Source: Desulfobacterales bacterium
GTDB taxonomy: Bacteria; Desulfobacterota; Desulfobacteria; Desulfobacterales; G020354645
Reading direction: 5' to 3'
Assembly: GCA_050053515.1 (NCBI GenBank)
Contig: JASFTQ010000001.1
Span: 4 to 64,003, forward strand
Length of the DNA: 64,000 nucleotides
The notes beneath the pieces were generated by a model. That model was given only the letters and a program-made list of their open reading frames with translations, was not told where the DNA came from and did not search any database. This document shows, piece after piece, positions 7,856-51,436 of this stretch; the stretch's first letter is position 1, and every line of letters starts with the position of its first letter. Position numbers and translations under genes: made by a program.

Positions 7856-8302
7856 TCATTTGACTGTAATGGTAATTCCGCGTGCTTCCCTGGGCTTGCA
7901 CTTCGGCAACACAATTTTCAAGGTGTCTTCCTCGTAAGTGGCTGTAACCTCATCGGTCAGTACCCGGCAAGGAAGGGTTATGGATCTGGCAAAAGAGCGC
8001 GAACTCGTCTGGATCCGCTGGTAATCTTGCCCCTTCTCGGTGGTTTTTTCGCTGATTTCTCCTTTGAAGGTCAAGGTGTCTTCGGTGACTGAGATCTGAA
8101 TATCCTCCGGTTGTAACCCCGGAAGCTTTGCCCTGATGGTCAGGGTTTCCTCCGTTTCGGAAAGATCCATGGTGAAGAATTCCGCCGCTCCCACCAAGCT
8201 GCGGGGCAAGCCAAAATCCCTGCGAAATCTTCTGAAAAGCTGCTCCAGCTCTTCCCGCATTTTATCGATTTCTTGCTTTTTCCATAAGATTAACTCGGCC
8301 AT
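7856..8302 (-). CDS. Hsp20/alpha-crystallin family small heat-shock protein
   Basis: 148 aa. The alpha-crystallin domain pattern is present (LTIRAKLPGLQPEDIQISVTEDTLTFKGE ... RSITLP ... ATYEEDTLKIVLPK). Confidence 0.9.
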   Translation of the reverse strand: MAELILWKKQEIDKMREELEQLFRRFRRDFGLPRSLVGAAEFFTMDLSETEETLTIRAKLPGLQPEDIQISVTEDTLTFKGEISEKTTEKGQDYQRIQTSSRSFARSITLPCRVLTDEVTATYEEDTLKIVLPKCKPREARGITITVK

Positions 8303-20833: not shown

Positions 20834-20995
20834 GATCATGCCGGTCCCGGAGCACGACCTGAATGACGGATACGGCATCCAGGTGGCTGAGCCCATGTAA
20901 TCAAGATAGATTCCGGGTCAAGCCCGGAATGACCGCTTCGCTTCCCTGTTCAAAGGGAAGCTGGCTGAATCAAATATTTTCCTTTCCGGGCTGAG
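20834..20995. repeat. hairpin-rich intergenic repeat, family D, copy 2
   Basis: It shares a block of about 100 bp with 13985-14098 in inverted orientation. It also shares the motif CCCTGTTCAAAGGGAAGCT with 44117-44135 and TTTTCCTTTCCGGG with 13940 and 44284. Confidence 0.55.
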
Positions 20996-31687: not shown

Positions 31688-32629
31688 TTAACTCGGTACG
31701 TATCGCAGGTGGATGGTAAAAAAAAGAACCACCGCTATGAAACAAGCGATGGACGGTGTTAAAAACCAGCCGATCAGAATGCTGACCAGTTTACGCCGGT
31801 TGACGGTATTGATTCCCTTGACAAGACCCACCCCCAGAACCGCTCCTATTACCGCCTGGGATGTTGAAACCGGAACGCCTACAAAGGTGTAGAAATGCAC
31901 CGTAACGGCCTCGGCCAAAACGACGACCATCGCCGAAAAAGGATCTAAACGCACCAGCCCTCGGCCCACAGTTTCCATTACGGGCCGGCTGAATGTCAAA
32001 ATGCCCAGACCAATACTTAAACCACCAATCAGAGTGGCCGAAAATACATTCAACCGGCCGGCCCCGACAAAGACCGCAGTTACATTGGCAACATTGTTGG
32101 CACCCAGTGCATAAGCCGCATATGATCCGGCAACAATCAAAGCGATTCGGATACAGATATCGGACTTAAATAAGTCGATACGGAGTCTGCTATATGCAGC
32201 CGCCAATATCTTGTAGGCCATAATTGCCGTCAGCATGCCCCCGATAGGGGTGCCAAACCAGCAGGCAACCACTTTGCCCAATCCTGTAAAATCAACCAAA
32301 CGGTTGAGAAATCCAATGCCCAGGATCGCGCCTACGGTAGCTTGAGAAGTTGAAATCGGCAGCCCGATCAGCGTCATTAACGTCACTGTAAAGGCTGCAG
32401 CCACAGACGCGACAACCGCTGCTTTAAGGGTCAGCCGAGTGAGGCCCGTAAGGGTTTCAATACCCGCCCCACCCTCCAAGAGCGCTCCCATTAATACAAA
32501 AAAAGCCGCTAACAACGCTGCAGACCAGAACTTCAGCATCCTGGAAGATACGGCGGAACCGAATGCATTTGCAGCGTCATTGGCGCCCAGCGACCATCCC
32601 AGAAAAATCCCACCCAGAAGAGAAAGCAC
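31688..32629 (-). CDS. inorganic phosphate transporter, PiT family
   Basis: 313 aa. The duplicated GANDAAN/GANNVAN motifs are present (LGANDAANAFGSAVSSR and ALGANNVANVTAVF). Confidence 0.9.
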   Translation of the reverse strand: MLSLLGGIFLGWSLGANDAANAFGSAVSSRMLKFWSAALLAAFFVLMGALLEGGAGIETLTGLTRLTLKAAVVASVAAAFTVTLMTLIGLPISTSQATVGAILGIGFLNRLVDFTGLGKVVACWFGTPIGGMLTAIMAYKILAAAYSRLRIDLFKSDICIRIALIVAGSYAAYALGANNVANVTAVFVGAGRLNVFSATLIGGLSIGLGILTFSRPVMETVGRGLVRLDPFSAMVVVLAEAVTVHFYTFVGVPVSTSQAVIGAVLGVGLVKGINTVNRRKLVSILIGWFLTPSIACFIAVVLFFTIHLRYVPS

Positions 32630-33309
32630 TAGATTCGCCTTTTCAGGTTAATTATATTTACCCGTTTCGATACGCGGTCTGCCTGATCCGAAATTTCACC
32701 CATTACAATAACCATCTCTTTTAGCTGCAACTTGAGAAAGGGCTCGAGATCGGAGTCGAAAAGTTTGATGATGATTCGACGCTCAATATGGTCACAATGA
32801 CTCTCGTTTTGATCAATGGTCGAAAGCAATGTCTTGATCCCCTCCTTTTTCTTGAGCATCACATCAATTTGCTTGATCATCAGATCGCAACTTTCCAGCG
32901 AAACCCGGATAAGCTCCTGGATGTCCAGCTTGAGGAATTCCGGAAAAAAGAGCTTTTGGGTGCGGAGCATATTCAAAATTTGCTCAAAAGAGCGCGGGAT
33001 CTCATCAACTTTTTCCAGCAGGCCCATGATATCCTCGCGCGACTCGGGAATCAGTGCCCGGCTGTACATCAGTTGATTAATTTCTTCCCGAATTTCATCG
33101 GCTACGGATTCAAATTTGTGGGTCTGGTCCATCAGAAAACAAAAATCGTCACTGACGCCCTCCTTCAGGCAAAGATTCATGGCCTTGGCAAAATGGTCTT
33201 GAATCATACCAAGGTTTTCCAGGTAGTCGTAAATCAATTTTTCCAGTTGGTGCTCTTTTCGAAATAAAAAATTTAACATAATCGGCTCCAATTCAGGTCT
33301 GATTAACAA
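32629..33309 (-). CDS. DUF47 / TIGR00153-type PhoU-like protein, the usual partner of PiT transporters
   Basis: 226 aa and helical. It sits immediately upstream of PiT with a 1-nt overlap, which is the usual DUF47-PiT pairing. Confidence 0.75.
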   Translation of the reverse strand: MLIRPELEPIMLNFLFRKEHQLEKLIYDYLENLGMIQDHFAKAMNLCLKEGVSDDFCFLMDQTHKFESVADEIREEINQLMYSRALIPESREDIMGLLEKVDEIPRSFEQILNMLRTQKLFFPEFLKLDIQELIRVSLESCDLMIKQIDVMLKKKEGIKTLLSTIDQNESHCDHIERRIIIKLFDSDLEPFLKLQLKEMVIVMGEISDQADRVSKRVNIINLKRRI

Positions 33310-33923
33310 ACCGGATATTTTCCCTGCGCAAGCTCCAGGCAGAATCTGTTGATATCGCCAAACGCTTGATTAAAGATTTCTTTAACTTCCCTGGATACAC
33401 CCCGCAATGTCTGGCCCTTCTCCAGAAGAAGCCGAGCATTGGCCATTTTGGATTTGCCGATCTGGCTCAAAAGCAGGACATAAACTTCATTGACCCCTTC
33501 AACACTTTGACATATTTTTTTTGCAAGCTGATGGGCAAGCACATTGTATACCTTACCGACATGGCTGACGGGATTCTTGCCGGCGGCAGCTTCCGTTCCC
33601 ATGGGCCGGTTCATACTGATCAAACCGTTGACCCGGTTGTCCCGGCCGACCTGTCCCGAATCCGCATCTTCGGCTGAAGTGCCGGTCAGGCTCAGATAGA
33701 TTCCGCCGATTCCTCTGTCTTTGTGGTCGAGGGTGTTATGGTTCAAGGATATTTTACGAAACACGCCTTTAGAGAGGCTTGATAAGAAATCCGATATCGC
33801 CTCCATCACGGCATCGCAGATATAATCCGGATGCCCCCTACCTTTGCGCTCGACGATTTCGACGCTCTGCCGCGTGACGGTTTGCTGCCCTTTGAGTGTT
33901 TCTATAAGAATCATTGTGATCAC
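33303..33923 (-). CDS. archaeal-type S-adenosylmethionine synthetase homolog with a large internal deletion (mini-MAT)
   Basis: 206 aa. The N-terminal block is EIVERKGRGHPDYICDAVMEAIS. The C-terminal blocks are LSLTGTSAEDADSGQVGRDNRVNGLISMNRPMGTEAAAGKNPVSHVGKVYNVLA and VLLLSQIGK. Both match archaeal MAT (about 400 aa in Methanocaldococcus as I recall), but roughly 200 central residues are absent. Confidence 0.6.
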   Translation of the reverse strand: MITMILIETLKGQQTVTRQSVEIVERKGRGHPDYICDAVMEAISDFLSSLSKGVFRKISLNHNTLDHKDRGIGGIYLSLTGTSAEDADSGQVGRDNRVNGLISMNRPMGTEAAAGKNPVSHVGKVYNVLAHQLAKKICQSVEGVNEVYVLLLSQIGKSKMANARLLLEKGQTLRGVSREVKEIFNQAFGDINRFCLELAQGKYPVC

Positions 33924-34016: not shown

Positions 34017-34275
34017 GGTTGTCGTCCATAATCGCCATGCCGGGGTCAACCTATATGGCTCTCGTATGAATATATCAATTAGATTGGTAAAAATGATAAA
34101 TTTAAGGAAAATCGTATATAAAAAAACATCGAGATGAAGCTAAGAGATCCTGAGAATTTAAAAAAGCAGAACTTCGAGTTCTGATATTTATCAATAGCGG
34201 AATTCCTTTTTCCTCTTAAAGCGACGCAGGACCAAGAACAACTGACCCACTGAGCGCTTTCGCTCTCAATATATC

Positions 34276-34291
34276 TGGCACGGGTATTGCT
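34276..34291 (+). promoter_or_regulatory. sigma-54 (-24/-12) promoter match upstream of the clpP-like gene
   Basis: The plus strand reads TGGCAC-GGGTA-TTGCT. It lies about 100 nt upstream of the GTG 34393 start. Confidence 0.6.
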
Positions 34292-34392
34292 CTCCATATA
34301 ATATAAGAGGATTGCTGTCGAACGAAAACCGGTATTTGGCGTCGTCATTAAAATCCGCAGTGAAAAATTACACAGGGTTTAAGGGGGTTGCC

Positions 34393-35010
34393 GTGGCCAT
34401 TATCATACCCATGATCATCGAACGAGACAGTCGTGGCGAGCGCGCTTATGATATATACTCCCGACTGCTGAAAGATCGGATTATTATTTTAGGGGCCGCC
34501 TTGAATGATGAGGTGGCCAATTTGCTCATCGCCCAACTGCTTTTTCTGGAATCCGAAGACCCGGATAAAGACATTAATTTTTATATCAATTCACCGGGTG
34601 GGTTGGTCACTTCAGGCCTGGCCGTGTATGACACGATGCAGTACATCAATCCTGACATCACTACGGTTTGCCTGGGGCAAGCCACCAGCATGGCGGCTTT
34701 TTTGCTGGCTGCCGGCACCAAGGGCAAACGCTATTCACTGCCGAATTCCAGGATATTAATCCGCCAACCGATGGGTTCATTTCGAGGACAGGCATCTGAT
34801 ATCGAAATTCACGCCAAGGAAATTATTCGAATGAAAGAGACCTTAAACCGTATCCTAGCCAGACACACCGACAGATCATATGAGCAAATTCAGGCGGATA
34901 CGGATCGGGACTATTATATGAGCAGCGAGGAAGCCAAGGTCTATGGTCTAATTGATTTTGTCATCAGAAATCGGAACGATCTCTTTCAGTTGCAGCAGAA
35001 AGCAGCCTAA
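34393..35010 (+). CDS. clpP: ClpP-family protease subunit with catalytic His replaced by Arg (ClpR-like)
   Basis: ClpP blocks are [41 protein letters not shown] and [14 protein letters not shown] (Ser present). The MIHQP motif reads LIRQP, with codon CGC at 34762-34764. The Asp region DTDRDYYMS is present. I chose GTG 34393, which follows AAGGGGG, because the track ATG at 34312 lies too close to the sigma-54 promoter and lacks an RBS. Confidence 0.8.
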
Positions 35011-38975: not shown

Positions 38976-41402
38976 ATGATTGGATTTATGCAACCAGAAT
39001 ATCTTAAAAAAAGCCTGGCAGAAATACCAAAAGACCTTTCTATCTTACCCCTGCGAAATATCGTTGCCTTTCCTTTCATGATGCTGCCTTTGTCGGTTGG
39101 AATTCCGCGGTCGGTTAGACTGATCGAAGATGCATTAAAAGGCGATCATTTGATCGGACTTCTGGCCAGCAAAGACGGATCGATTGACGAACCGGTGCCG
39201 GGCCAGATTTACGAAATCGGGACAGTGGCGAAATTGCACCATGCCGTACGAAGCCATGAAGAACATATGCACGTCGTGGTTGAAGGGCTAGAGCGCTTTC
39301 GGTTGAAGCACTGGCTGACCACCGAACCTTATCTCCAAGCCTCTATTGATCTTTCTCCAGATATCGTTGAGCCAGGGATTGAACTGGATGCCTTGATGCA
39401 CAGCTTGCGTGATTTAGCCAAGCAAATTATTACTCTCTTGCCGAATTTACCGGAAGATGTCGGCAATTTCCTTGATCAAGTAGAAGAACCACGATACCTT
39501 ATTTACATGGTTGCAGCCAATTCACGGCTCAATATGAAAACCAATCAGCGGCTATTAGAAATGGATCATCTCAAGGATAAATATCAAGCATTAATCTATC
39601 AACTAACGCGACAGAAAGAAGTATTAACTCTTGGCCGCAAGATTCAAACCGAAGTTCGAGAAAAAATGAGCAAGGCTCAACGGGAATACTACCTGCGCGA
39701 ACAACTCAAGGCCATTAAAAAAGAACTTGGCGAAACGGATGATATTGAATCTGAAGCCGTCGAATATGCCGTAAAAATTGAAAAAACGGATATGTCCGAA
39801 GAAGCCAGGAAAGAGGCGCAGCGAGAATTAAAACGGATGAAAGGGATGGCTCCGCAAGCAGCAGAATATGCGGTGATTAAAACCTATCTGGACTGGCTGC
39901 TGGAACTTCCTTGGAATGTGACCAGCCAGGATCAGTTGGATGTCAACGACGCCCGCAGTGTGCTGGATGAAGATCATTATGATTTGCAGGACGTCAAAAA
40001 TCGAATCATTGAATATCTTGCGGTACGCAAGCTGGTCTGCGAACGTGAGGAAGAATTTAAGCCTGAAACCTGTGTCTTCGACGACAAGGCCATGGGTGCT
40101 ATTCTCTGTTTCGTCGGACCCCCCGGTGTCGGCAAGACCAGCCTGGGGCAAAGTATTGCCAGAGCTCTGGGGCGAAAATTTACCCGCATGAGCCTGGGCG
40201 GCATGCGAGATGAAGCCGAAATTCGGGGACATCGCCGCACCTATATCGGGGCCATGCCGGGCCGTATCATCCAGGCGATCAAGCGAGCAGGCACCCGCAA
40301 TCCGGTCTTCATGCTGGATGAAGTGGACAAAATCGGAACAGATTGGCGTGGAGATCCTAGCAGCGCACTGCTGGAGGTCCTTGATCCCGCCCAAAACCAT
40401 GCTTTTCGCGATCACTACCTGGATGTAGACTTTGATCTGAGTGATGTGATGTTTATTACCACGGCCAACCAACTTGAGACCATTCCACCACCCTTGCGTG
40501 ACCGAATGGAAATTATTCATCTGGAAGGATATACAGAGTATGAGAAGATCCATATTGCCAAGAATTTTCTGGTGCCCCGGCAGCTTAAAGCAAATGGGCT
40601 GCGCAAAGAAGAAGCAATATTCACCACAGACGCTTTGCGAAAAATTATACAAAGTTACACCCGGGAGGCCGGGGTGCGAACCCTGGAGCGCCAGATTGGG
40701 ACAGTTTGTCGTAAAGTTGTTGTAAAAATTGCCGCCGGGGAATCAATTCATGAAGAAGTTACACCGACCGCCGTGCGAGGATATCTCAAAAAAGAAAAAT
40801 TCGAATCCGAAGCTTCCGAGATAATCGACACTCCGGGGATTGCCACTGGCCTAGCGGTAACGGCTACCGGTGGTGACATTTTATTTATCGAAGCCACCCG
40901 CATGCCGGGTAAAGGCAAGCTGACTTTAACCGGTCAACTGGGCGACGTCATGCGTGAAAGTGCTCAAATTGCCCACAGCTACGTGCGGTCAAAGACTGCT
41001 CAGTTGGAAATTAATTCAGAAGATTTCGAAAAAAATGATGTGCATTTGCATGTGCCGGCCGGCGCCATTCCTAAAGACGGCCCCTCGGCAGGCATTGCAA
41101 TGGTAACCGCCATCGCAAGCCTATTCAGTGGGAAACCCGTACATGGCGATGTCGGTATGACCGGCGAAGTAACATTACGGGGCCGAGTGCTGTCGGTCGG
41201 TGGTATTAAAATGAAGGTTCTGGCTGCCCATCGCGCCGGAATTACCACTGTGGTCCTGCCCAGAAAAAACGAACCTGATCTGGAGGAATTACCGGAAGAT
41301 GTGCGTAACGACATAAACTTTATTCCTATCGAGCAAATCGATGAAGCCCTGAAAGTGGCACTGGCCGCTGACAGGTTAAATGAAAAAAACAAGAAGAGTT
41401 AA
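38976..41402 (+). CDS. lon: ATP-dependent protease La (Lon)
   Basis: 808 aa. It has the LON N-domain, Walker A GPPGVGKTS, Walker B FMLDEVDK and the catalytic PKDGPSAGIAM ... GGIKMKVLAAHRAG region. Confidence 0.95.
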   Translation: MIGFMQPEYLKKSLAEIPKDLSILPLRNIVAFPFMMLPLSVGIPRSVRLIEDALKGDHLIGLLASKDGSIDEPVPGQIYEIGTVAKLHHAVRSHEEHMHVVVEGLERFRLKHWLTTEPYLQASIDLSPDIVEPGIELDALMHSLRDLAKQIITLLPNLPEDVGNFLDQVEEPRYLIYMVAANSRLNMKTNQRLLEMDHLKDKYQALIYQLTRQKEVLTLGRKIQTEVREKMSKAQREYYLREQLKAIKKELGETDDIESEAVEYAVKIEKTDMSEEARKEAQRELKRMKGMAPQAAEYAVIKTYLDWLLELPWNVTSQDQLDVNDARSVLDEDHYDLQDVKNRIIEYLAVRKLVCEREEEFKPETCVFDDKAMGAILCFVGPPGVGKTSLGQSIARALGRKFTRMSLGGMRDEAEIRGHRRTYIGAMPGRIIQAIKRAGTRNPVFMLDEVDKIGTDWRGDPSSALLEVLDPAQNHAFRDHYLDVDFDLSDVMFITTANQLETIPPPLRDRMEIIHLEGYTEYEKIHIAKNFLVPRQLKANGLRKEEAIFTTDALRKIIQSYTREAGVRTLERQIGTVCRKVVVKIAAGESIHEEVTPTAVRGYLKKEKFESEASEIIDTPGIATGLAVTATGGDILFIEATRMPGKGKLTLTGQLGDVMRESAQIAHSYVRSKTAQLEINSEDFEKNDVHLHVPAGAIPKDGPSAGIAMVTAIASLFSGKPVHGDVGMTGEVTLRGRVLSVGGIKMKVLAAHRAGITTVVLPRKNEPDLEELPEDVRNDINFIPIEQIDEALKVALAADRLNEKNKKS

Positions 41403-41409
41403 AAGTAAC

Positions 41410-41441
41410 GCCGGAACAGGAATTATCACACCTGTCCCGGC
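41410..41441. terminator. hairpin between the convergent lon and small secreted protein genes
   Basis: GCCGGAACAGG - 10 nt - CCTGTCCCGGC forms an 11-bp stem with one mismatch, 8 nt after the lon stop. Confidence 0.45.
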
Positions 41442-41499
41442 ATTGGTAACTCTTTGCTCAGGAATCCGACCGTAAACAAAGGCCGGACTTCAAAGAAAT

Positions 41500-41823
41500 T
41501 TATCCGGATAGTCCTTCGATGGTGTGCCCCGTTTCCGTAACCCGCCACCGCACGTTTACGGTTTCGCCCACTTTAAAATCGTCAAGCGTCGCGGGGCGAT
41601 TGCCCTTTGTCACTTTTGCGTTGGGGGCCAAGGCTCCGCCCACCGTCATCGAGTCATTTGGCACCGGGATTTCGATCACAACCACATTATCTAGTAGGTT
41701 AATAGCGGATATTTTACCACCCCGGCTATATACTCGGTCGCCTGCCAAAACTAGAGATGCGATTAAAAGTACTAGGACAAAGGTCCCTAAAAAAATCGCT
41801 GATTTCGTTTTAAATGTGTTCAT
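41500..41823 (-). CDS. small secreted or membrane-anchored protein of unknown function
   Basis: 107 aa. An N-terminal hydrophobic segment (AIFLGTFVLVLLIASLVLAG) is followed by a beta-rich region of about 75 aa. It has a strong RBS (AAAGGAGGA) and a sigma-54 promoter about 45 nt upstream. Confidence 0.6.
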   Translation of the reverse strand: MNTFKTKSAIFLGTFVLVLLIASLVLAGDRVYSRGGKISAINLLDNVVVIEIPVPNDSMTVGGALAPNAKVTKGNRPATLDDFKVGETVNVRWRVTETGHTIEGLSG

Positions 41824-41868
41824 AATATCCTCCTTTAGTTATTTTTTCATAATTTAATCAATAAGTGA

Positions 41869-41884
41869 TGCAATCGATATGCCA
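41869..41884 (-). promoter_or_regulatory. sigma-54 (-24/-12) promoter match for the small secreted protein gene
   Basis: The minus strand reads TGGCAT-ATCGA-TTGCA. It sits between the NtrC-type activator gene and ATG 41823. Confidence 0.65.
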
Positions 41885-42150
41885 CATTAAAACTAATTGA
41901 ATTTATTATAATTATTGACAGTCATCGATATTAGCAGAACTGCTTGTTCCTTTTTCGGATCGACTGCAGTTATACAATCACAATTGGGTTCGAATATATG
42001 AAGATAATATGCTGAATACAAACCGAATAACTAACAGGAACTCGCGGTTCTTTCAGTGAAATAATCGGAATAACGAATTCTTTAAAAAAATCTGTTGTTT
42101 GAGTCGGGGTCAGTGGAGGGTGAAAAAATAGAAGGGAGCAAAGATATACC

Positions 42151-43542
42151 TCAGGGTTTGAAGATCTCTTTGCGAATTGCGTATTTTAACATCAACTTAT
42201 TTAGTTGACGGGTCGTAATGCCGGCTTCATCAGCAGAGACTTTTACCTTTCCTCGGTTTCTCGAAAGAAGCTCCTTAAGATACTGTCTTTCAAATTCTTC
42301 GACCGCTTGTTTTCTGGCTTCAGCAAGTGTTGTATCCGGGTGAATCGGTAATATGGCGCTTTCGGGATCTTTTTTGAATAGCTCCTCGGGAAAGTTTTCA
42401 GGTGTTAATGCCGGTGTAGATTCAAGCAGGTAAGCTCTTTCCATAAGGTTTTCGAGCTCACGAATGTTACCGGGCCACATATATTTCTCAAGGGCTGCAG
42501 TAACGGTCGGATGTATTCGATTGATTTTTTTGCCGTACGTACCGTCAAGCCTTTTCAAAATCGTGTTCATCAGAAAGGGAATGTCATCCTTGCGCTCCCT
42601 TAATGAAGGTAGCTCGATGGGCAATACATTCAGCCGGTAATAAAGATCCTTTCTGAAGGTTCCGTCTTCCCTCTTCTGTTGGAGATCGGCGTTGGTGGCG
42701 GCAATAATCCTGGCATCGGTTTTAAAAGTTTCTTCACCGCCCACGGGGCTGAAAGTTCCATCCTGTAAAACCTGCAGCAGTTTTATTTGTGATCCCGGTG
42801 AAATGGTGCCGACTTCATCTAAAAAGATCGTTCCGCCTTTGGCGATTTCAAACTTTCCGAGTTTTTTGCGATGGGCACCGGTAAATGCTCCTTTTTCGTG
42901 GCCGAACAGTTCGCTCTCCAGGAGGGTATCTGGGATGGCGCCGCAATGGACACTTATAAAGGGGGCATCACGCCGGTGGCTGTGAATGTGGATTAATCGC
43001 GCCAAAACGCCCTTGCCGGTTCCTGTTTCACCACTGAGCAGGATAGTGGCTTTGGTTGCCGCCACTGCGCGGATTTTTTCATAAACCATCCGCATGGCAG
43101 CACTTTCGGTGTGAATCGTATCCAGTGCATCAGGTCGCCAGAACTTATCTCTTAAATAGTCGAGCTCCAGGTTTTTTATGACGGTTTTTTCGGCAGACGC
43201 TGCAACTAAACAGACTTCTTCAGCATTGAGGGGAAGGAGAACGTAATCGCTGGCGCCGGCTTTCAAAATCTTGACTGTTTTTCGTATCCACTTCGCCGGT
43301 GTCACCAGAATAAGTTCCACGCTGGGGTATAGATTGACGAAAGGCTCCAGAGCTTCCTGATAATCCTCGGATTCAGAAAAAAGATCGATGTCTATAAATG
43401 CTAGCGCGTGATCTCTGGCCCTAAGTATATTGACCGCCGCTTCCCGGTTATCGGCATTATCGACGGTGTATTCCGAGCCCAGTGCGGAAATGATTTGTTT
43501 GCTGTGTTCTTCAACAGAGGAGACGACTAGAACAGACCGCAT
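42151..43542 (-). CDS. sigma-54-dependent transcriptional activator (NtrC family) with an atypical receiver domain
   Basis: 463 aa. It has an N-terminal REC-like domain, an AAA+ domain with GETGTGKG, GAFTGA and Walker B TIFLDEVG, and a C-terminal Fis-type HTH (AGITTRQLNKLMLKY). Confidence 0.9.
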   Translation of the reverse strand: MRSVLVVSSVEEHSKQIISALGSEYTVDNADNREAAVNILRARDHALAFIDIDLFSESEDYQEALEPFVNLYPSVELILVTPAKWIRKTVKILKAGASDYVLLPLNAEEVCLVAASAEKTVIKNLELDYLRDKFWRPDALDTIHTESAAMRMVYEKIRAVAATKATILLSGETGTGKGVLARLIHIHSHRRDAPFISVHCGAIPDTLLESELFGHEKGAFTGAHRKKLGKFEIAKGGTIFLDEVGTISPGSQIKLLQVLQDGTFSPVGGEETFKTDARIIAATNADLQQKREDGTFRKDLYYRLNVLPIELPSLRERKDDIPFLMNTILKRLDGTYGKKINRIHPTVTAALEKYMWPGNIRELENLMERAYLLESTPALTPENFPEELFKKDPESAILPIHPDTTLAEARKQAVEEFERQYLKELLSRNRGKVKVSADEAGITTRQLNKLMLKYAIRKEIFKP

Positions 43543-43629
43543 TTTACATTTTGGAGGGTTAGTATTTTACATGAATTGATTCAACCAATGATCCGCTAAT
43601 CTATTTCATACTAGTCGTAAGTGTGAATG

Positions 43630-44070
43630 TCAATCCAATTCGAAAAAGGATCTTACCCTGGCGATCATTTGCCCTTCAGTCATTTTATCTTGCGTTTCCA
43701 CCTTTAGGATTTTTTGGGCCAATTCTTTCGATTTTTCGATTTCTTTTTTCAATTCCTTTTTGGCTTCCCCGGGCCCCATAATCACAACCCTATCAACTTG
43801 TTGTACTGTTTTAATCAGTTCACGGTAGTATTTTTTAAGCTGTTGCTTGCGGCGATCCTCCATTTTACCATCCACCGCAACCTCCTGTGGTCCCCATGGT
43901 GTCTTGCGTGTTCGGGATCCCCCGGACAGCCGAACGCGGCGCTCAACATCTGAGACTATTCTGGTGATCGTTTCCGCCTCCTGTTGTTTTTCATGTCTAT
44001 GTTCAGCCCTTGCGATAGTGACGATGTAGGCCTTTTTGTGGTCCACCCAGATTCCGACAAATTTTTTCAT
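43630..44070 (-). CDS. small cytoplasmic protein, possibly eRF1/Pelota-like (Host_attach / baeRF-type)
   Basis: 146 aa. The layout resembles host-attachment-protein / bacterial eRF1-like families as I recall them: N-terminal GIWVDHKKAYIV strand, central RVVIMGPGEAKKELKKEI and C-terminal DKMTEGQMIARVRSFF. The gene itself is credible (RBS, codon usage). The family call is tentative. Confidence 0.4.
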   Translation of the reverse strand: MKKFVGIWVDHKKAYIVTIARAEHRHEKQQEAETITRIVSDVERRVRLSGGSRTRKTPWGPQEVAVDGKMEDRRKQQLKKYYRELIKTVQQVDRVVIMGPGEAKKELKKEIEKSKELAQKILKVETQDKMTEGQMIARVRSFFELD

Positions 44071-44114
44071 TTTTTCTCACACCTTTTTTTTATATTTTAG
44101 TTTCAACGGTTCAC

Positions 44115-44305
44115 CTCCCTGTTCATAGGGAAGCTATCTGAAGCCAACGGCCATCCCGTGCCCAGCACGGGGTGGCTTGGATTTTTAGCCTTTGGCTGAA
44201 AAGGCAAAAGCACATCAGTGTTTTAAACGTTGCACTTGCAACCGGGTGTGAAGCACCCGGTATGTATGGCAAGAAACAGATAGTTTCCTTTCCGGGAAGC
44301 CCCGT
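44115..44305. repeat. hairpin-rich intergenic repeat, family D, copy 3
   Basis: It contains CCCTGTTCATAGGGAAGCT and TTTCCTTTCCGGGAAGCCCCG, both shared with 20944 and 13941. It also has strong local hairpins (CCCGTGC-CCA-GCACGGG and ACCGGGTG-TGAAG-CACCCGGT). Confidence 0.5.
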
Positions 44306-44360
44306 CCTAAAGTGCAGAGAGCCTCACTACACTCGCATCTGCTGTCTTGCAATCACCAAA

Positions 44361-44375
44361 GCAACCGTTATGCCA
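44361..44375 (-). promoter_or_regulatory. sigma-54 (-24/-12) promoter match far upstream of the eRF1-like / activator operon
   Basis: The minus strand reads TGGCAT-AACGG-TTGCT. It lies about 290 nt upstream of ATG 44070. Confidence 0.5.
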
Positions 44376-44801
44376 GATTTTTCCCTAATCATCGGATCTC
44401 GCTAGATATCAGTGTTATCGATATGGCAAGTCCCTGAAATCATACTAATAAATTCAGACACACAGTTGACTATTCGATATGAAAGAACTGAGTTGCCGCG
44501 GCCTTGTAAAACAGATAGCAGTCCAATGGAGAACTTCAGGTTCCGATTATTACGGTAAAAGAATTCTCAAATCCTTTTTTTGGGATTCATGCCCCGCCGT
44601 GGAGTAGCCGTCGACAAATAAAACATGTGATTTTAACAACTTAATCATTTTGGCTCACTAATTGCTTTATTTTGAGATGGGAGTCTCGCATTGATCATAA
44701 AAACAATGGGAGCGAATACCCATTTTATTTTGGGCGCAAAAATATTTCGGCGATATCCAGTAGCTTTTCTTAGTATTAGTAATCGGGACAACCAAAAGTG
44801 A

Positions 44802-44921
44802 GGTGATAATAGTGCAGCACCGGTGGACGGCTTGATGATCACCACCGAAGCCCTGGTTTCTGAAAAGCCGGAGAAGAAAAAGAAACCGGCAATGCCGGAG
44901 ATGGATGAAGAAAGATATTAA
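44802..44921 (+). pseudogene. groEL: relic of a groEL 3' end (C-terminal about 35 codons only)
   Basis: This 39-codon open frame has no usable start. It translates to GDNSAAPVDGLMITTEALVSEKPEKKKKPAMPEMDEERY*. The AA.V.GLMITTE..V...P core matches the conserved GroEL C-terminus (E. coli [20 protein letters not shown]) followed by a PAMP..M tail. I saw no GroEL homology upstream. Confidence 0.5.
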
Positions 44922-45591: not shown

Positions 45592-45627
45592 TTCGTGAAA
45601 GGGAGAAGCAAAAGTGAGGTGATAATA

Positions 45628-46566
45628 ATGCAGCCCCGAGATCAAAAGACGTTGCTGGTGGCAATGGACGTATCCGAGCGAAGTAAAAACACTGTTAAGC
45701 AGTTGGCTAGAATCGATCGCTTCCGAGAATACAAGATTGTTTTATTTCATGTTTTCAATCCAATACAGGAAATTTATTGGGATCTAGAAATAGATCCTAA
45801 GGCGATTGTGTCTGAGAAAGACATTTTTGCTTGGGAAGCTGAGAAGGAAAAGAAGACGACCGATTTCATGGAACAGGCACAAAACCTTCTTGTACGCAGC
45901 GGGTTTAATAAGGATTTCTTAGCGGTAAAAATTCAGCCACGTTTAAAAGGAGCCGCTAGAGATTTCATCGCTGAAGCTCGGCGAGGATACCATGTTTCGG
46001 CAATTCGACGACGCGGAATGTTACAAGACACATCCGGCATCGTGGGGAGTGTATTCAGCAAACTTGTTGAAGCGATCTCTTTTGTTCCTTTGCTAATTAT
46101 CGGCAAGCAACCTTTTTCCGGTAATATTATCATCGGGATTGATGGTTCTGAAAACGCTTTGCGAGCAGTTGATTTCGTAGGCGAGTTACTGGGGGGATCT
46201 GACTGCAGGGTGCATTTATTAAGTGTTGTGCGCAGGATTCAAGGTTTCGGACAGAAGCAACATCAGTGGCAGACGCTAAGTAAAATGATTGAGCCCTTTT
46301 TCAAAAGAAAACTGACGGCATCGCTTGAGGAATCCAAAAAACGGTTAATGGTAGCTGGATTTACCAGTGAACAGCTATCCGCCAAGGTCATCACAGGCGA
46401 GGACAGTCGTGCCGGCTGCCTTGTTCAGGAAGCCGAAAGGTTTGGCTGTGATACCATTGCGCTGGGAAGAAAAGGCTTATCGCAAGTAATGGATTTCTCC
46501 ATGGGAGGTGTGACGAGAAAGGTTATCCAACTGGCCCAAGATAAAAGCATCTGGGTGATAAATTAA
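45628..46566 (+). CDS. universal stress protein with tandem USP domains
   Basis: It has two USP domains, and the second carries the ATP motif LGRKGLSQVMDFSMGGVTRKV. I prefer ATG 45628, preceded by GAGGTG, over the track GTG at 45595. Confidence 0.85.
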   Translation: MQPRDQKTLLVAMDVSERSKNTVKQLARIDRFREYKIVLFHVFNPIQEIYWDLEIDPKAIVSEKDIFAWEAEKEKKTTDFMEQAQNLLVRSGFNKDFLAVKIQPRLKGAARDFIAEARRGYHVSAIRRRGMLQDTSGIVGSVFSKLVEAISFVPLLIIGKQPFSGNIIIGIDGSENALRAVDFVGELLGGSDCRVHLLSVVRRIQGFGQKQHQWQTLSKMIEPFFKRKLTASLEESKKRLMVAGFTSEQLSAKVITGEDSRAGCLVQEAERFGCDTIALGRKGLSQVMDFSMGGVTRKVIQLAQDKSIWVIN

Positions 46567-46705: not shown

Positions 46706-46721
46706 TGGCACGCTAGTTGCT
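46706..46721 (+). promoter_or_regulatory. sigma-54 (-24/-12) promoter match upstream of the YeiH-family gene
   Basis: The plus strand reads TGGCAC-GCTAG-TTGCT, about 72 nt upstream of ATG 46792. Confidence 0.65.
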
Positions 46722-48442: not shown

Positions 48443-49390
48443 TTATGTTGTCGCGCTAAAATGCTTTTTCGAAAAGGCGACTCGCTCCTCAATCGCCGTC
48501 AGGTTATGGTGATGCTGTTCAACCAGCTTTAGACGCGGCAGCAATCCTGATCGGTTGGCGATTTGAATATTGAGACCCGGACGGGCGTTCAGCTCCAAAA
48601 TTAACGGCCCTTTATCTTTGTCCAGCACAAGATCAACACCGATGTATCCCAGACCAATCAGCTCATAACAACGGGATGCAATATGAAGCAGTGTATCCCA
48701 GCTCGCAATTTGAACACCGGTAACAGGGTTTCCGGTATCCGGGTGCTCGGTAACAATATTATCTCGCCACACCGCGGTTAGGGTTGTTCCGGTAGTGATA
48801 TCAATTCCGGCGCCAAGCGCCCCCTGGTGTAAGTTGGCTTTGCCGCCGGACATGCGGGTTGGCAGCCGTACCATGGACATCACCGGCACCCCCAGAAAAA
48901 CGATCACCCGAATATCCGGCACTCCCTGATAACTGATGGCTTCGAATACGGGATCAAATTGCACCCGATATTCGATCAAGACTTTATCCGGCTGCCCGCC
49001 TAAACTATAGATACCGCTGATGATATTAAACAGATGATAGGCGACTTCTTCAGGGTTCAACAGTGTACCGTCGACTTTGCGATACATATTCTTGGAGCAT
49101 CCGGAGATGACCAAAATGCCTTCCCCGCCTGAACCTCTGGATGGCTTTATGGCAAATTCCGAATAAGATTTCAGCAACGCCTCGATATGCCGAACCTGAT
49201 ATTCCGTCTCCACCACTTCATAAAGCTCCGGTACGGCAATACCGGCTTTCAAGGCAATTTTTTTGGTCTGCAGCTTGTCATCCACAAGCGGAAATAAGCG
49301 GCGCGGATTGTAGCGCAGGGTATATTCGGCGTTGCGGCGGTTGATGCCCAGCACACCCATTTCGGCGATGCGTTTCTTTATCCTAAACAT
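48443..49390 (-). CDS. alpha-L-glutamate ligase-related ATP-grasp protein (RimK-related)
   Basis: 315 aa with ATP-grasp blocks (FAIKPSRGSGGEGILV ... ILELNARPGLNIQIANR). It overlaps the upstream 7TM gene by 8 nt. Confidence 0.75.
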   Translation of the reverse strand: MFRIKKRIAEMGVLGINRRNAEYTLRYNPRRLFPLVDDKLQTKKIALKAGIAVPELYEVVETEYQVRHIEALLKSYSEFAIKPSRGSGGEGILVISGCSKNMYRKVDGTLLNPEEVAYHLFNIISGIYSLGGQPDKVLIEYRVQFDPVFEAISYQGVPDIRVIVFLGVPVMSMVRLPTRMSGGKANLHQGALGAGIDITTGTTLTAVWRDNIVTEHPDTGNPVTGVQIASWDTLLHIASRCYELIGLGYIGVDLVLDKDKGPLILELNARPGLNIQIANRSGLLPRLKLVEQHHHNLTAIEERVAFSKKHFSATT

Positions 49391-50918
49391 CGGATTTTAT
49401 CTCGGTTAAAGCCTTAAAACGGCGAAGTTCCATTAACCTGAAACCGGAATAGCGTCCCAGCAATATGGTTGCGGCAAGCAATATCAGAAGCAATTCGGGA
49501 AATACAAACACCAGATGTTCAACCAATTTAATGCTCATTATCAGATAGGCGATCACTGCTGCGACAATTGATCCGACCCCCTGTTTGATGGTTTCAAAAG
49601 CCCCCAGCTCATCCCATACGATGGACATCCGTTCGATGGTCATGGTTAAAATGACCATGGGAAACAGCGCCACGGAGAGCCCTCGCTCAAGCCCGAGTTT
49701 GTTTGTCAGCACACTGAGAAATGCCATCAAACCGATCACGACAATTAATATTGCCGCTAATCGCGGTACCACCAGTAATTTCAAATGGTCAAAGTATAAA
49801 CGAATCAGCAGCCCGATGCCGACCACCGTGGAAAATAAAAAAACACCCCACAGCAGCCGGGTCTCTCTAAATGAAAGGGCAATCAAAACCGGCATAAACG
49901 TGCCGAATGTCCGGATACCGATAACATTGCGAAGAATAACCAGAAACAAAACACCGACGGGAACCAGCAATGCCACTCGATATACGGCCTGGGTTTTGGC
50001 TGGCAGGCTGAACAGGGAGAAATCCAGCAAAAACGGCTTTTTGATGATGCCCTTTTCAACCGCCAGCTGCAGAGCGGCTTCCTCACCGCGCACAACCGAT
50101 AACGATACCCGCAGATTTTTTACTCCTAGGGCCTGCACCAGCGGTTCCACGCCTTTCCACCATGCCAGATAGTCTTCAGGCACGTCACGCTCTCCCGAAA
50201 GCGGTTCGTAGGAAATCCAGCGGTTCTTATCATAAACCTCCAGCCAGTGTATAATGGGAGCCTCTCTTCGTTGCGCTTCCAACCGCAGGCCGTGTACAGC
50301 ACGGGCGTGGATGCCGGCCAGGGCCAGCAATTGAACGGCAAGGTCGACCTTCTTTTGAACCGTCGCTTTTTTACCTAAAAACAAGGCGACATTATCCCCC
50401 GGTTGCGAAGCGTTCAGCTGTTTTAATAATGCTGCCACCAGACTGTCCGTATCTGCCGACTTTTCACGGACATCGAATAGGATCGCCCGGGATGCCTCGC
50501 GATAGGCACCGCTAAAATCAGGTTGGCTCGGTTCGGCTTTGACCGGCTGGGTTGATTTGATATCTCGATCTACCCGATATACCGATGCCTTATAAAACAG
50601 GGTTTGCGATCCTCGGGCCTTGCGAATCGACCAGATGACCTTGCGCTTTCCTTCCTCGGTGGAAACGTCAACCCCGTACCCGCGGGATATGAAATTTTCG
50701 TTCACGATAGTAAAACGCTTCGAAGTGCGCGGGATGCGCATGGCAACCTTTACAGGTGTGTCACCGGCCTCGAATGTGAGGTGAGCCTCGATGTCCCAAA
50801 CATAGGTCAGGGTCTCAGGGATCAGGGGGAAATCTAAGACCAGGATTTTATATAAAAAAAGCGCAAGGCCCACGGCAGTTAAAAATCCCGATAAAAAATA
50901 CAAGTGGCGCTTGTTCAT
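49383..50918 (-). CDS. inactive-transglutaminase-like periplasmic domain fused to a 7-TM module
   Basis: 511 aa. An N-terminal TM is followed by a soluble region of about 270 aa and then about seven closely packed TM helices. This architecture co-occurs with RimK-related ligases. Confidence 0.65.
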   Translation of the reverse strand: MNKRHLYFLSGFLTAVGLALFLYKILVLDFPLIPETLTYVWDIEAHLTFEAGDTPVKVAMRIPRTSKRFTIVNENFISRGYGVDVSTEEGKRKVIWSIRKARGSQTLFYKASVYRVDRDIKSTQPVKAEPSQPDFSGAYREASRAILFDVREKSADTDSLVAALLKQLNASQPGDNVALFLGKKATVQKKVDLAVQLLALAGIHARAVHGLRLEAQRREAPIIHWLEVYDKNRWISYEPLSGERDVPEDYLAWWKGVEPLVQALGVKNLRVSLSVVRGEEAALQLAVEKGIIKKPFLLDFSLFSLPAKTQAVYRVALLVPVGVLFLVILRNVIGIRTFGTFMPVLIALSFRETRLLWGVFLFSTVVGIGLLIRLYFDHLKLLVVPRLAAILIVVIGLMAFLSVLTNKLGLERGLSVALFPMVILTMTIERMSIVWDELGAFETIKQGVGSIVAAVIAYLIMSIKLVEHLVFVFPELLLILLAATILLGRYSGFRLMELRRFKALTEIKSDV

Positions 50919-51436
50919 TCATCCGATCCTTCCCGGCAGCTTGGTTTAATGGTGAAGGTAAGCCCCGGATCGACAATAAATGATCCTCTAAGAAAGCTCC
51001 GGCCGATCAGCATCTGGTAATTAAAGCCACTGCGGTCCTCCAGGTTGACTTCGACTTTTTTGTATGTGTTTCCAACACAGATTCCGAGTTTGATCACCGG
51101 GCGTATGTCGGCTTTTTGGCCAGTCTGTTTGATCTTGGCTGTCCGGATGACCTCCGCTTCAAGTGTCTCTATGCGATTTTTGTAATTGCGAAGATCAAAC
51201 CGTACCCAGGTTTCACCATCTCGTGTAAATCGTTCCAAATGCTTTGCATTCAGCGAAGAATTTCTGGCCCCGGTGTCCAGTTTGGCCTTGATTTTCATAT
51301 TTCCGGGATGAATGCTGACCGTTTCAATCCACCCGACGATGCGTTTTTCCGCAGCCACAGCAAAGATCGACAGGCCAACAGAGATGGATACGATCAGTAC
51401 CAGAATTTTTGATAATCTTGCCATCATTTTAATCAT
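50915..51436 (-). CDS. retropepsin-like aspartic protease (DUF785 / RimB-like) with an N-terminal signal or anchor
   Basis: 173 aa. The KLDTGARNSSL motif is a D-T-G aspartyl-protease signature. The start of the downstream 7TM gene overlaps this gene's stop as ATGA (50915-50918). Confidence 0.65.
   Translation of the reverse strand: MIKMMARLSKILVLIVSISVGLSIFAVAAEKRIVGWIETVSIHPGNMKIKAKLDTGARNSSLNAKHLERFTRDGETWVRFDLRNYKNRIETLEAEVIRTAKIKQTGQKADIRPVIKLGICVGNTYKKVEVNLEDRSGFNYQMLIGRSFLRGSFIVDPGLTFTIKPSCREGSDE

Follow-up and report, generated by a model that had tools for sequence, protein, structure and literature searches.

A putative sigma-54 heat-shock-like regulon of Desulfobacterales with a kinase-less activator, a palindromic enhancer and a minimal eRF1-like protein

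The 64,000-nt stretch of DNA analysed here, referred to below as the window, comes from a Desulfobacterales bacterium (GenBank assembly GCA_050053515.1, contig JASFTQ010000001.1, positions 4 to 64,003 of the forward strand). On its minus strand lie, in this order, a sigma-54 promoter, a 289-nt leader, an open reading frame (ORF) for a 146-aa eRF1-like protein, a gap of 87 nt, an ORF for a 463-aa sigma-54 activator, a second sigma-54 promoter and an ORF for a 107-aa protein (Table 1). On the strength of sequence comparison we consider it moderately probable that the activator drives a heat-shock-like proteostasis regulon via a palindromic upstream site and that the 146-aa protein is a stress-induced ribosome effector. 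In Desulfobacterales, transcription of groEL or groESL, dnaK and hsp20 seems to depend on sigma-54, by way of this one kinase-less activator and a rigid three-site enhancer. An earlier note on this DNA had described the three genes as a self-contained regulatory unit. This description had to be abandoned because genes outside the unit, among them groEL, dnaK and hsp20 in relatives and a ClpP-family protease gene in the window, lie behind the same arrangement of enhancer and promoter.

Sigma-54 promoters were recognised as TGGCAC-N5-TTGCW elements with GG and GC 10 nt apart and lying 5' of a gene; the window sites have this form and are kept in relatives. The window contains four matches to the pattern TGGCAY-N5-TTGCW where 0.24 would be expected, and none of 100 shuffled sequences reaches this number, which bears out the two promoters that the earlier note had placed before the eRF1-like gene and the 107-aa gene. 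The first of them, TGGCATAACGGTTGCT, is identical in the close relatives L005, L006 and L007 (loci of relatives are designated in this way throughout) and has one change in L008. The second, TGGCATATCGATTGCA, is followed about 45 nt further 3' by an AAGGAGG ribosome-binding site and the ATG of the 107-aa gene. The divergent promoter at 44651(+) is kept as TGGCCCAC..ATTGCT in L005 and L008, with the common upstream activating sequence (UAS) 112-114 nt 5' of it. The gene downstream of the promoter at 34276(+) encodes a ClpP-family protease (Pfam CLP_protease, E=4e-83).

Comparison of the regions upstream of sigma-54 promoters revealed the palindrome RGAAC-N5-GTTCY. Exact matches number four in the window versus 0.27 expected; all of them are intergenic and all lie 59-162 nt 5' of sigma-54 promoter matches. 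From the UAS at 44530-44544 it is 162 nt to the 44375(-) promoter and 114 nt to that at 44651(+); L005 and L008 show the same distances. The spacing of AGAACTGCTTGTTCC is close to the class of about 62 nt seen across the regulon. For a wider survey, metagenome contigs were searched with an alignment of the pseudo-receiver and linker of the activator, giving 469 confirmed matches from which 80 loci (510 kb) were kept. These loci contain 75 exact palindromes where about two would be expected under uniform base composition, and 48 of the 75 are near a sigma-54 promoter. When palindromes with up to one mismatch are counted and their distances measured to the -24 element, the sites fall at 60-69 nt (26 sites), 160-169 nt (17) and 190-199 nt (26), and no other 10-nt bin holds more than four. 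The palindrome is thus laid out as a stereotyped three-site enhancer, about 62, 165 and 195 nt 5' of the -24 element.

Several of the genes found behind this architecture are chaperone genes. In L018 groEL lies behind a sigma-54 promoter with upstream sites, and so do a fragment of an HSP70 (dnaK) gene and an operon encoding p120 and p96, two small proteins described below. In L020 and L054 a single upstream site accompanies groES/groEL, at distances of 109 and 164 nt. Such promoters also precede hsp20 in L005, L095, L123, L131 and L149, and the eRF1-like gene in the window, L005, L008, L018, L095 and L101. Within the metagenome set, promoters with the enhancer were counted 18 times for p96, four times for hsp20, three times for p120 and twice for the eRF1-like gene. 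A sigma-54 promoter is present at groES in L001 and another next to groEL in L010. Moreover the CIRCE operator, searched for with up to 4 mismatches in 18 positions, is absent from 1.57 Mb of related loci, including those which carry groESL.

The gene order in relatives was found to be variable. In L001 to L004 a sigma-54 promoter is followed by p96 (a 96-aa ORF), the eRF1-like gene, the activator gene, a further sigma-54 promoter and a gene for a 99-aa CBM48/AMPK-CBM protein, and in L001 to L003 a sigma-54-driven groES-groEL and an hsp20 gene are located alongside the module. L005, whose eRF1-like protein is 80% identical to that of the window, has divergent cytochrome c3/Usp genes, the eRF1-like and activator genes, a sigma-54 promoter and three hsp20 genes. 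In Desulfosarcina widdelii the eRF1-like gene is placed between a CBM48 gene and DnaJ/MerR_2 genes, and a p96-activator operon lies 3 kb away. On a related metagenome contig, that of the P0026 locus, the eRF1-like gene follows CBM48 and glycogen phosphorylase genes and is beside hsp20-groES-groEL, without the activator. The eRF1-like and activator genes are found together again around close homologues of the 146-aa protein, but the third gene does not recur. Thirty activator loci have flanks of 1.5 kb or more in either direction; the neighbours within 4 kb in these are p96 (15 loci), p120 (9), CBM48 (4) and the eRF1-like gene (2), with a single occurrence each of hsp20, ClpP and Lon. No homologues of p96, p120, GroES/EL or CBM48 were detected in the window by tblastn; an hsp20 gene is present at 7856-8302 (tblastn), without a convincing sigma-54 promoter.

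Three small proteins recur around the activator and the eRF1-like gene in these loci. The protein p96 has no Pfam match and is characterised by the core motif TIRGIVIPVDWDEKGNV...EEYLV (L001, 5707-5997); 40 ORFs in related loci match it by BLASTP, for example L018 102-404, L015 4237-4503 and one in L146, where a p96-groES-groEL operon begins with it. No other gene accompanies the activator subfamily, or is its sigma-54 target, as constantly as p96. The protein p120, likewise conserved and without Pfam match, carries the motif LGKNPDWVW...ILFEGWYDKK and is often encoded just 3' of the activator gene (L018 483-845; L096, L106, L130, L140, L142 and L151). The enhancer scan reached its gene in four loci, and in all four the gene is preceded by a sigma-54 promoter and the same upstream sites. 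The third is a protein of about 100 aa consisting of a CBM48/AMPK-CBM glycogen-binding module, encoded beside the eRF1-like gene, the activator gene or both (L001 8310-8609, L004 8278-8577, L009, L015 6632-6952 and L165). In L001, L004 and L009 a dedicated sigma-54 promoter precedes its gene, and in the P0026 contig this gene is beside the glycogen phosphorylase gene; the recurrence of the protein hints at a link between glycogen and the stress regulon. Locus L015 is the stretch 3160449-3174880 of the chromosome of Desulfosarcina widdelii PP31, a cultivated and fully sequenced organism which would suit as experimental host. Desulforhopalus vacuolatus and Desulfogranum marinum, also cultivable, have the eRF1-like gene too.

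The 146-aa protein was not readily recognised by family models. Its best Pfam scores are with eRF1_2 (E=0.02, 15.6 bits, cut-off 27.1) and baeRF_family5 (E=0.07, 13.6 bits, cut-off 27), and it reaches the gathering score of none of the curated eRF1_2 and baeRF_family models. When 49 diverse members of its family were scanned, 15 matched eRF1_2 and 6 matched baeRF_family10, all weakly (best E 6e-4 and 3e-3), and no Pfam model captured the family as such. A profile search of PDB sequences gave Pelota at E=0.09. The structure predicted by AlphaFold (AF2) from 20 homologues (predicted local distance difference test score, pLDDT, 76.9) has three N-terminal strands, a long loop of low confidence (residues 40-67), a long helix and a strand-helix-strand-helix arrangement. 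The top ten Foldseek matches of this model in the PDB are eRF1/aRF1 chains with E values of about 5e-6 to 4e-5; the isolated middle domain of human eRF1 (2hst) was matched with E=6e-5, Balon with E=9e-5 and Vms1 with E=0.035, and Pelota was matched too. As modelled, the protein is a stand-alone eRF1 middle domain with RNase H-like fold and a single-domain relative of the baeRF-1/Balon assemblage. The likeness to eRF1, Pelota and baeRF proteins that the earlier note had seen is therefore upheld by the fold. Its other suggestion, Host_attach, fell away, as PF10116 gave no match to the 146-aa protein at E up to 1 and does not figure among the 25 families listed of the 32 in Pfam that the 49 members matched. 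Of the JGI labels attached to some homologues, "CcmK/EutM" is without support in fold or Pfam and "Dom34" agrees with the fold only loosely; neither was retained.

The loop of the 146-aa protein is conserved. It reads R47-L-S-G-G-S-R...P-W-G-P-Q62, and within the Desulfobacterales clade the form RLSGGSRT..PWGPQE is nearly invariant. Across 135 representatives of the family the loop residues are kept as G50 (85%), G51 (80%), R53 (66%) and Q62 (65%), and elsewhere G6 (96%), W8 (97%), D10 (95%), S40 (94%), G99 (99%), P100 (98%), K104 (89%), D128 (88%) and Q134 (96%) stand out. There is no contiguous GGQ: the loop, modelled at low confidence, contains G50-G51 and G60-P61-Q62. From a partial Pfam alignment of the helix which follows, Q62 may be placed roughly at the position of the GGQ glutamine.

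The family to which this protein belongs is large. A profile search gave 2,440 cluster representatives (50% identity) at E<=1e-3 and 1,247 at E<=1e-10, and a genome scan with a 20-member alignment found at least 580 loci, distributed over Desulfobacterota, Chloroflexota, Acidobacteriota, Bacteroidota, Planctomycetota, Omnitrophota, Spirochaetota and other phyla. The eRF1-like gene adjoins this activator in the Desulfobacterales clade only (5 of 63 loci). Outside the clade its neighbourhoods are variable and lack the activator, with RNase II/R upstream in 5 of 64 loci. A conserved neighbourhood for the family as a whole was considered and discarded, since nothing recurs apart from these two genes. 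Because the family is widespread and is found beside the activator only in the Desulfobacterales clade, the 146-aa protein is more likely a target and effector of the regulon than a dedicated controller of the activator. Three baeRF-1 families reduced to the core domain have been described, with a proposed action in the ribosomal A site which may be catalytic or blocking (Burroughs & Aravind 2019, PMC6514570), and the genes of three-domain Balon proteins are typically found in stress operons with Hsp20, DnaK and DnaJ (PMC10901736).

According to the reading that we prefer, the activator, as a sigma-54 enhancer-binding protein, would bind the RGAAC-N5-GTTCY enhancer and activate a heat-shock-like regulon. 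In the window this regulon would comprise the operon of the activator itself (positive autoregulation), the 107-aa gene, probably the cytochrome c3/Usp genes and possibly the ClpP gene; in relatives it would take in groEL/groESL, dnaK, hsp20 and the genes for the CBM48 protein, p96 and p120. The 146-aa protein would act on ribosomes as a stress-induced effector, its conserved GG...GPQ loop being inserted near the peptidyl-transferase centre, and might either free stalled or dissociated large subunits of their peptidyl-tRNA or park ribosomes. The pseudo-receiver could be controlled by chaperone titration or by p96. That this activator binds the DNA, that the signal is heat or proteotoxic stress and that the 146-aa protein is active on ribosomes are inferences.

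The earlier note had suggested that the eRF1-like protein may control the activator. In this case it would be the signal-input partner (anti-activator or co-activator) in a feedback loop, and the other genes would be the outputs. The location of the gene can be read in this way, as in the window and in L001 to L012 it lies directly 5' of the activator gene and is co-transcribed with it, and in L020 and L054 it lies just 3' of it, and an activator without a working phospho-acceptor pocket or a nearby kinase needs some other input. There is also precedent for such a partner: PspA, encoded by the first gene of a sigma-54 stress operon, inhibits its activator; FleN with FleQ is a comparable pair. 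Nevertheless the eRF1-like gene is a neighbour in just 2 of the 30 well-flanked activator loci versus 15 for p96, the family occurs in many phyla with no activator nearby, the gene of the P0026 contig follows a glycogen phosphorylase gene instead, and the fold and the conserved loop point to the ribosome. We have thus set control by the eRF1-like protein aside as the leading explanation and regard a PspA-like dual role as possible and unlikely. Very doubtful, in our opinion, is a protein that is both ribosome effector and feedback sensor of the regulon. In that arrangement free eRF1-like protein would hold the activator inactive or active, and recruitment to stalled or heat-damaged ribosomes would flip its state; if true, cells of a lineage whose groESL has no CIRCE would possess a sigma-54 "ribosome-stress" circuit, in which the state of translation acts directly on the transcription of chaperones and proteases.

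The activator itself is of the NtrC type, as the earlier note had recognised, and has the GAFTGA loop. It matches Sigma54_activat (PF00158) with E=7e-67 across the full length of the profile, and the loop is found within "EKGAFTGA". The N-terminal domain scores 26.3 bits with Response_reg, under the Pfam cut-off of 30.2, and the C-terminal helix-turn-helix (HTH) scores 16.7 bits with HTH_8 against a cut-off of 22; no NCBIfam equivalog came near its cut-off. The motif ELDYLRDKFW in the linker marks the activator subfamily. The N-terminal domains of nine relatives were aligned with that of Escherichia coli NtrC. Relative to NtrC the window activator has S/S in place of D11/D12 and L in place of K104, and retains the equivalent of D54 (D51). 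The acidic pair is absent in all nine relatives and, of the NtrC pocket positions D11, D12, D54, T82 and K104, the D54 equivalent alone is invariant; the K104 position is Y or H in eight relatives and L in the window activator. Moreover no histidine kinase was found among the Pfam-annotated gene calls of the window 10 kb either side of the module. "Kinase-less pseudo-receiver", as the earlier note had it, is a fair description of this domain, which judging from these replacements is probably no longer phosphorylatable in the usual way.

It can still be argued that the activator is a conventional response regulator, phosphorylated at Asp51 by an orphan histidine kinase encoded elsewhere in the manner of HsfB and HsfA. 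Asp51 is, after all, invariant in the nine relatives, and sigma-54 two-component control of a heat-shock gene is known from HsfA/HsfB in the account given in PMC3892784. However, no relative compared has the acidic pair which binds Mg2+ or the conserved Lys, the Response_reg score is under the gathering cut-off, and no kinase was seen within 10 kb in the window nor among the Pfam-annotated genes beside the module in related loci, so that we hold this explanation to be highly unlikely. Least probable of all is that the palindrome is bound by a different regulator while the adjacent activator serves unrelated promoters and the clustering is incidental: paralogues might be confused because Desulfobacteria genomes encode 50-69 enhancer-binding proteins each (PMC12316311), but loci retrieved by the N-terminal and linker signature of the activator alone are about 40-fold enriched for the palindrome, and the sites stand at fixed distances from sigma-54 promoters that directly flank the activator gene.

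Two further observations were made on the activator gene and protein. A sigma-54-like element, TGGCATTTAGATTGCT, lies antisense within the coding sequence in L001 (7620-7605, minus strand), L009 (8605, minus) and L010 (5529, minus). It is identical in these three loci and is not kept in the activator gene of the window; it could be due to chance under coding constraint or be an antisense promoter. As to defence systems, PADLOC gave zero matches for the 146-aa and 107-aa proteins, and the activator matched only the generic AAA+/HTH part of RtcR-type models and not their CARF domain.

Some points speak against a heat-shock-like regulon with the 146-aa protein as ribosome effector. Membership of the regulon is assigned from the co-occurrence of motifs and is to that extent putative. 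The site near the ClpP gene (101 nt) and that on the cytochrome side (114 nt) fall outside the three spacing classes, and the promoter of the eRF1-like operon in the window has one good site, the distal one, with the proximal position degenerate. The Lon and ClpB genes of the window have no recognisable sigma-54 promoter. As for the 146-aa protein, the loop is poorly modelled, with pLDDT below 50 at residues 46-53 and 60-63, and Q62 is kept in just 65% of the family representatives. Finally, PspA is widespread without PspF, and therefore the broad distribution of eRF1-like proteins would by itself be compatible with a local regulatory role.

Table 1. Features of the sigma-54 module and of its surroundings in the window
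Feature	Position	Strand	Remarks
ORF, 107 aa	41500..41823	-	ORF list
Sigma-54 promoter TGGCATATCGATTGCA of the 107-aa gene	41869..41884	-	Consensus scan
Proximal UAS AGAACTGCTTGTTCC of the 107-aa gene promoter	41936..41950		59 nt 5' of the -24 element
Distal UAS GGAACTCGCGGTTCT of the 107-aa gene promoter	42037..42051		160 nt 5' of the -24 element
ORF, 463 aa (activator)	42151..43542	-	ORF list; pseudo-receiver (1-~125), ELDYLRDKFW linker, AAA+ with GAFTGA, AAA lid, weak Fis-type HTH
ORF, 146 aa (eRF1-like)	43630..44070	-	ORF list
5' leader, 289 nt	44071..44359	-	~220 nt (~44099-44318) are a hairpin-rich insertion
Sigma-54 (-24/-12) promoter TGGCATAACGGTTGCT of the eRF1-like/activator operon	44360..44375	-	Consensus scan
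UAS AGAACTTCAGGTTCC	44530..44544		Divergent intergenic region; common to the 44375(-) and 44651(+) promoters
Sigma-54-like promoter TGGCTCACTAATTGCT	44651..44666	+	10/11 consensus positions; divergent from the operon, toward the cytochrome c3/Usp genes
groEL 3'-end remnant (ending in VDGLMITTEALVSEKPEKKKKPAMPEMDEERY and the stop)	44802..44921	+	Matches GroEL C-termini of L010, L020, L054
UAS AGAACTTCGAGTTCT	34168..34182		101 nt 5' of the 34276(+) ClpP promoter; 159 nt from the 34016(-) site
Sigma-54 promoter TGGCACGGGTATTGCT	34276..34291	+	36 nt 5' of the ClpP-family protease gene (34312-35010)

The N-terminus of the 107-aa protein is basic; next come about 20 hydrophobic residues and then "VLA|GD". 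Its AF2 model (pLDDT 79.9) consists of an N-terminal helix (residues 2-26) and a five-stranded barrel, and the helix is predicted to be a signal peptide or anchor, in agreement with what the earlier note had read from the sequence. Foldseek placed CusF and SilF first (CusF E=1.5e-4, TM-score 0.54-0.74), followed by cold-shock and OB (oligonucleotide/oligosaccharide-binding) domains, so the protein resembles CusF, a chaperone of Cu(I)/Ag(I) in the periplasm, in being, as predicted, a small exported OB-fold barrel. It differs in its score with Pfam CusF_Ec (E=0.22, 11.9 bits), which is below the cut-off of 27, and in its putative metal site. The mature part holds a single Met, M59, which together with W93 and H100 is invariant across three homologues; compared with the His/Met/Met (+Trp) ligands of CusF, a two-Met site is not evident.

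Only two homologues of the 107-aa protein were found in a database of 5.8 billion clusters. One is 90% identical and is encoded on a 1.5-kb contig, where the spacing of the genes equals that of the window and thus suggests the same arrangement; the other is 64% identical and is located in an unrelated context without the activator. That the protein is a diverged p96 or p120 was considered and rejected, the hhalign probability being 0.2% for both. The neighbourhood of three genes, conservation of which the earlier note had named as a test, did not hold up in the survey: the 107-aa gene is a near-orphan, and in relatives its place is taken by three hsp20 genes or by a CBM48 gene. The proposal that the gene is an output of the activator fared better. 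Since its sigma-54 promoter has two palindromes at the regulon-typical distances of 59 and 160 nt, it is very probably a target of this activator, and the protein looks like a lineage-specific recruit to the regulon.

The leader of the eRF1-like/activator operon had been described as repeat-rich and about 290 nt long and had been counted as part of the regulatory unit. The length proved right. No direct repeats were detected in the leader, only two 12-nt inverted repeats; it is strongly structured (folding z = -3.9). In an alignment with L005 and L008 the insertion of about 220 nt is lacking in these close relatives, the promoter of which lies 83-85 nt 5' of the ATG with a leader of about 70 nt. 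A conserved regulatory function of the leader thus found no support. Rfam gave no match, either at the gathering score over the whole window or at E up to 1 over 41400-44700, and a conserved riboswitch or thermosensor was rejected because most of the leader is this lineage-specific insertion. The block is best seen as a small, hairpin-rich inserted element. Its ends resemble short intergenic elements at 20934-20990 of the window and at 2389-2448 of L001; these partial copies suggest a small family of repeats similar to repetitive extragenic palindromes (REP) or miniature inverted-repeat transposable elements (MITE). A sigma-70-like promoter in the gap between the eRF1-like and activator genes (43627-43598) was left out of consideration because such matches are no commoner than in shuffled sequence.

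The divergent intergenic region bears marks of rearrangement. A remnant of the 3' end of groEL is situated between the 44651(+) promoter and the cytochrome c3 gene, and there is no intact groESL in the window. In addition, 5' of the remnant, a 38-nt stretch (44785-44822) shares 89% identity with the Usp gene at its 5' end (45601-45638), which suggests a duplication or rearrangement in this region. The presence of the groEL remnant and the Usp 5' duplicate behind the shared site suggests that groESL was once divergent to the operon, as it still is in L001 and L020.

The Pfam-annotated gene calls in the 10-kb flanks of the module are ClpB, MscS, a RimB-like/7TM-transglutaminase/ATP-grasp trio, Cons_hypoth698, Usp, cytochrome c3, Lon, MFS, a GDH-CBS protein, ClpP and AdoMet synthase. 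A perfect sigma-54 promoter (46706-46721, plus strand) precedes the gene for the 451-aa Cons_hypoth698 membrane protein; its counterpart in L008 (256-241, minus strand) has a palindrome with one mismatch 61 nt 5', and the window copy has two mismatches. A weaker sigma-54-like match, TGGCATGCCAATTGCC (34016-34001, minus strand, 9/11 positions), is 159 nt from the palindrome at 34168 and faces an archaeal-type AdoMet synthase gene which is apparently split into the ORFs 33303-33923 and 32629-33309. The trio lies near the eRF1-like gene in the window (48443-51436, minus strand), and on the same-metagenome contig carrying P0026 such a trio is directly 3' of an eRF1-like gene.

Each component of the proposed regulon has a precedent: stand-alone baeRF-1 domains, pseudo-receiver activators such as FleQ, and sigma-54 stress regulons such as Psp and HsfA/HsfB. 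The phage-shock system PspF/PspA is a sigma-54 stress regulon with an activator that is not controlled by phosphorylation and with a small protein encoded first in the operon. Both features are shared here; however, PspF lacks an N-terminal domain altogether, while about 125 N-terminal residues of this activator form a receiver-like domain, the genes here are those of cytoplasmic chaperones and not membrane-stress genes, and none of the three module proteins has a PspA-family match in Pfam. Activators of the FleQ/FlrA type combine a pseudo-receiver with AAA+ and HTH domains, have no cognate kinase and are controlled by a partner protein or ligand. Our activator has the same architecture and likewise no cognate kinase nearby, but differs in its regulon, in having no Pfam match to the FleQ domain and in the absence of a FleN-like ATPase within 10 kb. 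Vms1/ANKZF1 (VLRF-1), which serves as release factor in the ribosome quality control of eukaryotes, has an eRF1-like catalytic core, does not decode stop codons and works on dissociated large subunits. It resembles the 146-aa protein in the Foldseek match noted above and in a long loop with Gly and Gln; unlike Vms1, the 146-aa protein has no zinc-finger, ankyrin or VIM modules, its fold match to Vms1 is far weaker than to eRF1 (about 5e-6), and its activity is a predicted one.

The baeRF-1 clade, which includes the ribosome hibernation factor Balon, has the RNase H-like eRF1 middle domain, and stand-alone single-domain families are described in it (PMC6514570). Balon keeps company with Hsp20, DnaK and DnaJ in stress operons (PMC10901736), as the eRF1-like gene does in relatives of the window. 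Balon has three domains, with an HP motif in the decoding centre and a hairpin that binds EF-Tu (PMC10901736), whereas the 146-aa protein consists of the middle domain only; the motif and the hairpin cannot be present because the N (decoding) and C (GTPase-binding) domains are absent. It further differs from baeRF-1 and Balon proteins in the loop, GG-x-R...G-P-Q instead of GGQ, and in reaching none of the Pfam baeRF/eRF1 cut-offs. A link of sigma-54 or an enhancer-binding protein to baeRF-1 or Balon is not described in PMC6514570 or PMC10901736. In Myxococcus xanthus, HsfA and HsfB control the heat-shock gene lonD via sigma-54 (Ueki & Inouye, as cited in PMC3892784). There too an activator of the NtrC type acts at the sigma-54 promoter of a heat-shock gene, but HsfA is phosphorylated by the adjacent kinase HsfB, whereas the pocket here is degenerate and there is no adjacent kinase.

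Heat-shock control in Proteobacteria and the former Deltaproteobacteria is usually ascribed to sigma-32 and HrcA/CIRCE (2004 reconstruction, PMC545781), and in a 2025 survey of sigma-54 regulons chaperone promoters were enriched mainly in Planctomycetota and Bacteroidota (PMC12316311). The literature searched contained no Desulfobacterales regulon in which a sigma-54 activator governs groESL, dnaK and hsp20, and neither the fixed 62/165/195 enhancer layout nor a minimal eRF1-like domain in such a regulon. If the proposed regulon is real, it would represent a third route to the induction of bacterial chaperones, with a compact and recognisable enhancer grammar. The small proteins p96 and p120 and the CusF-like 107-aa protein would then be candidate stress factors. 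Moreover the presence of a minimal eRF1-like domain in a heat-shock regulon would offer an entry point to the function of stand-alone baeRF-1 proteins on ribosomes.

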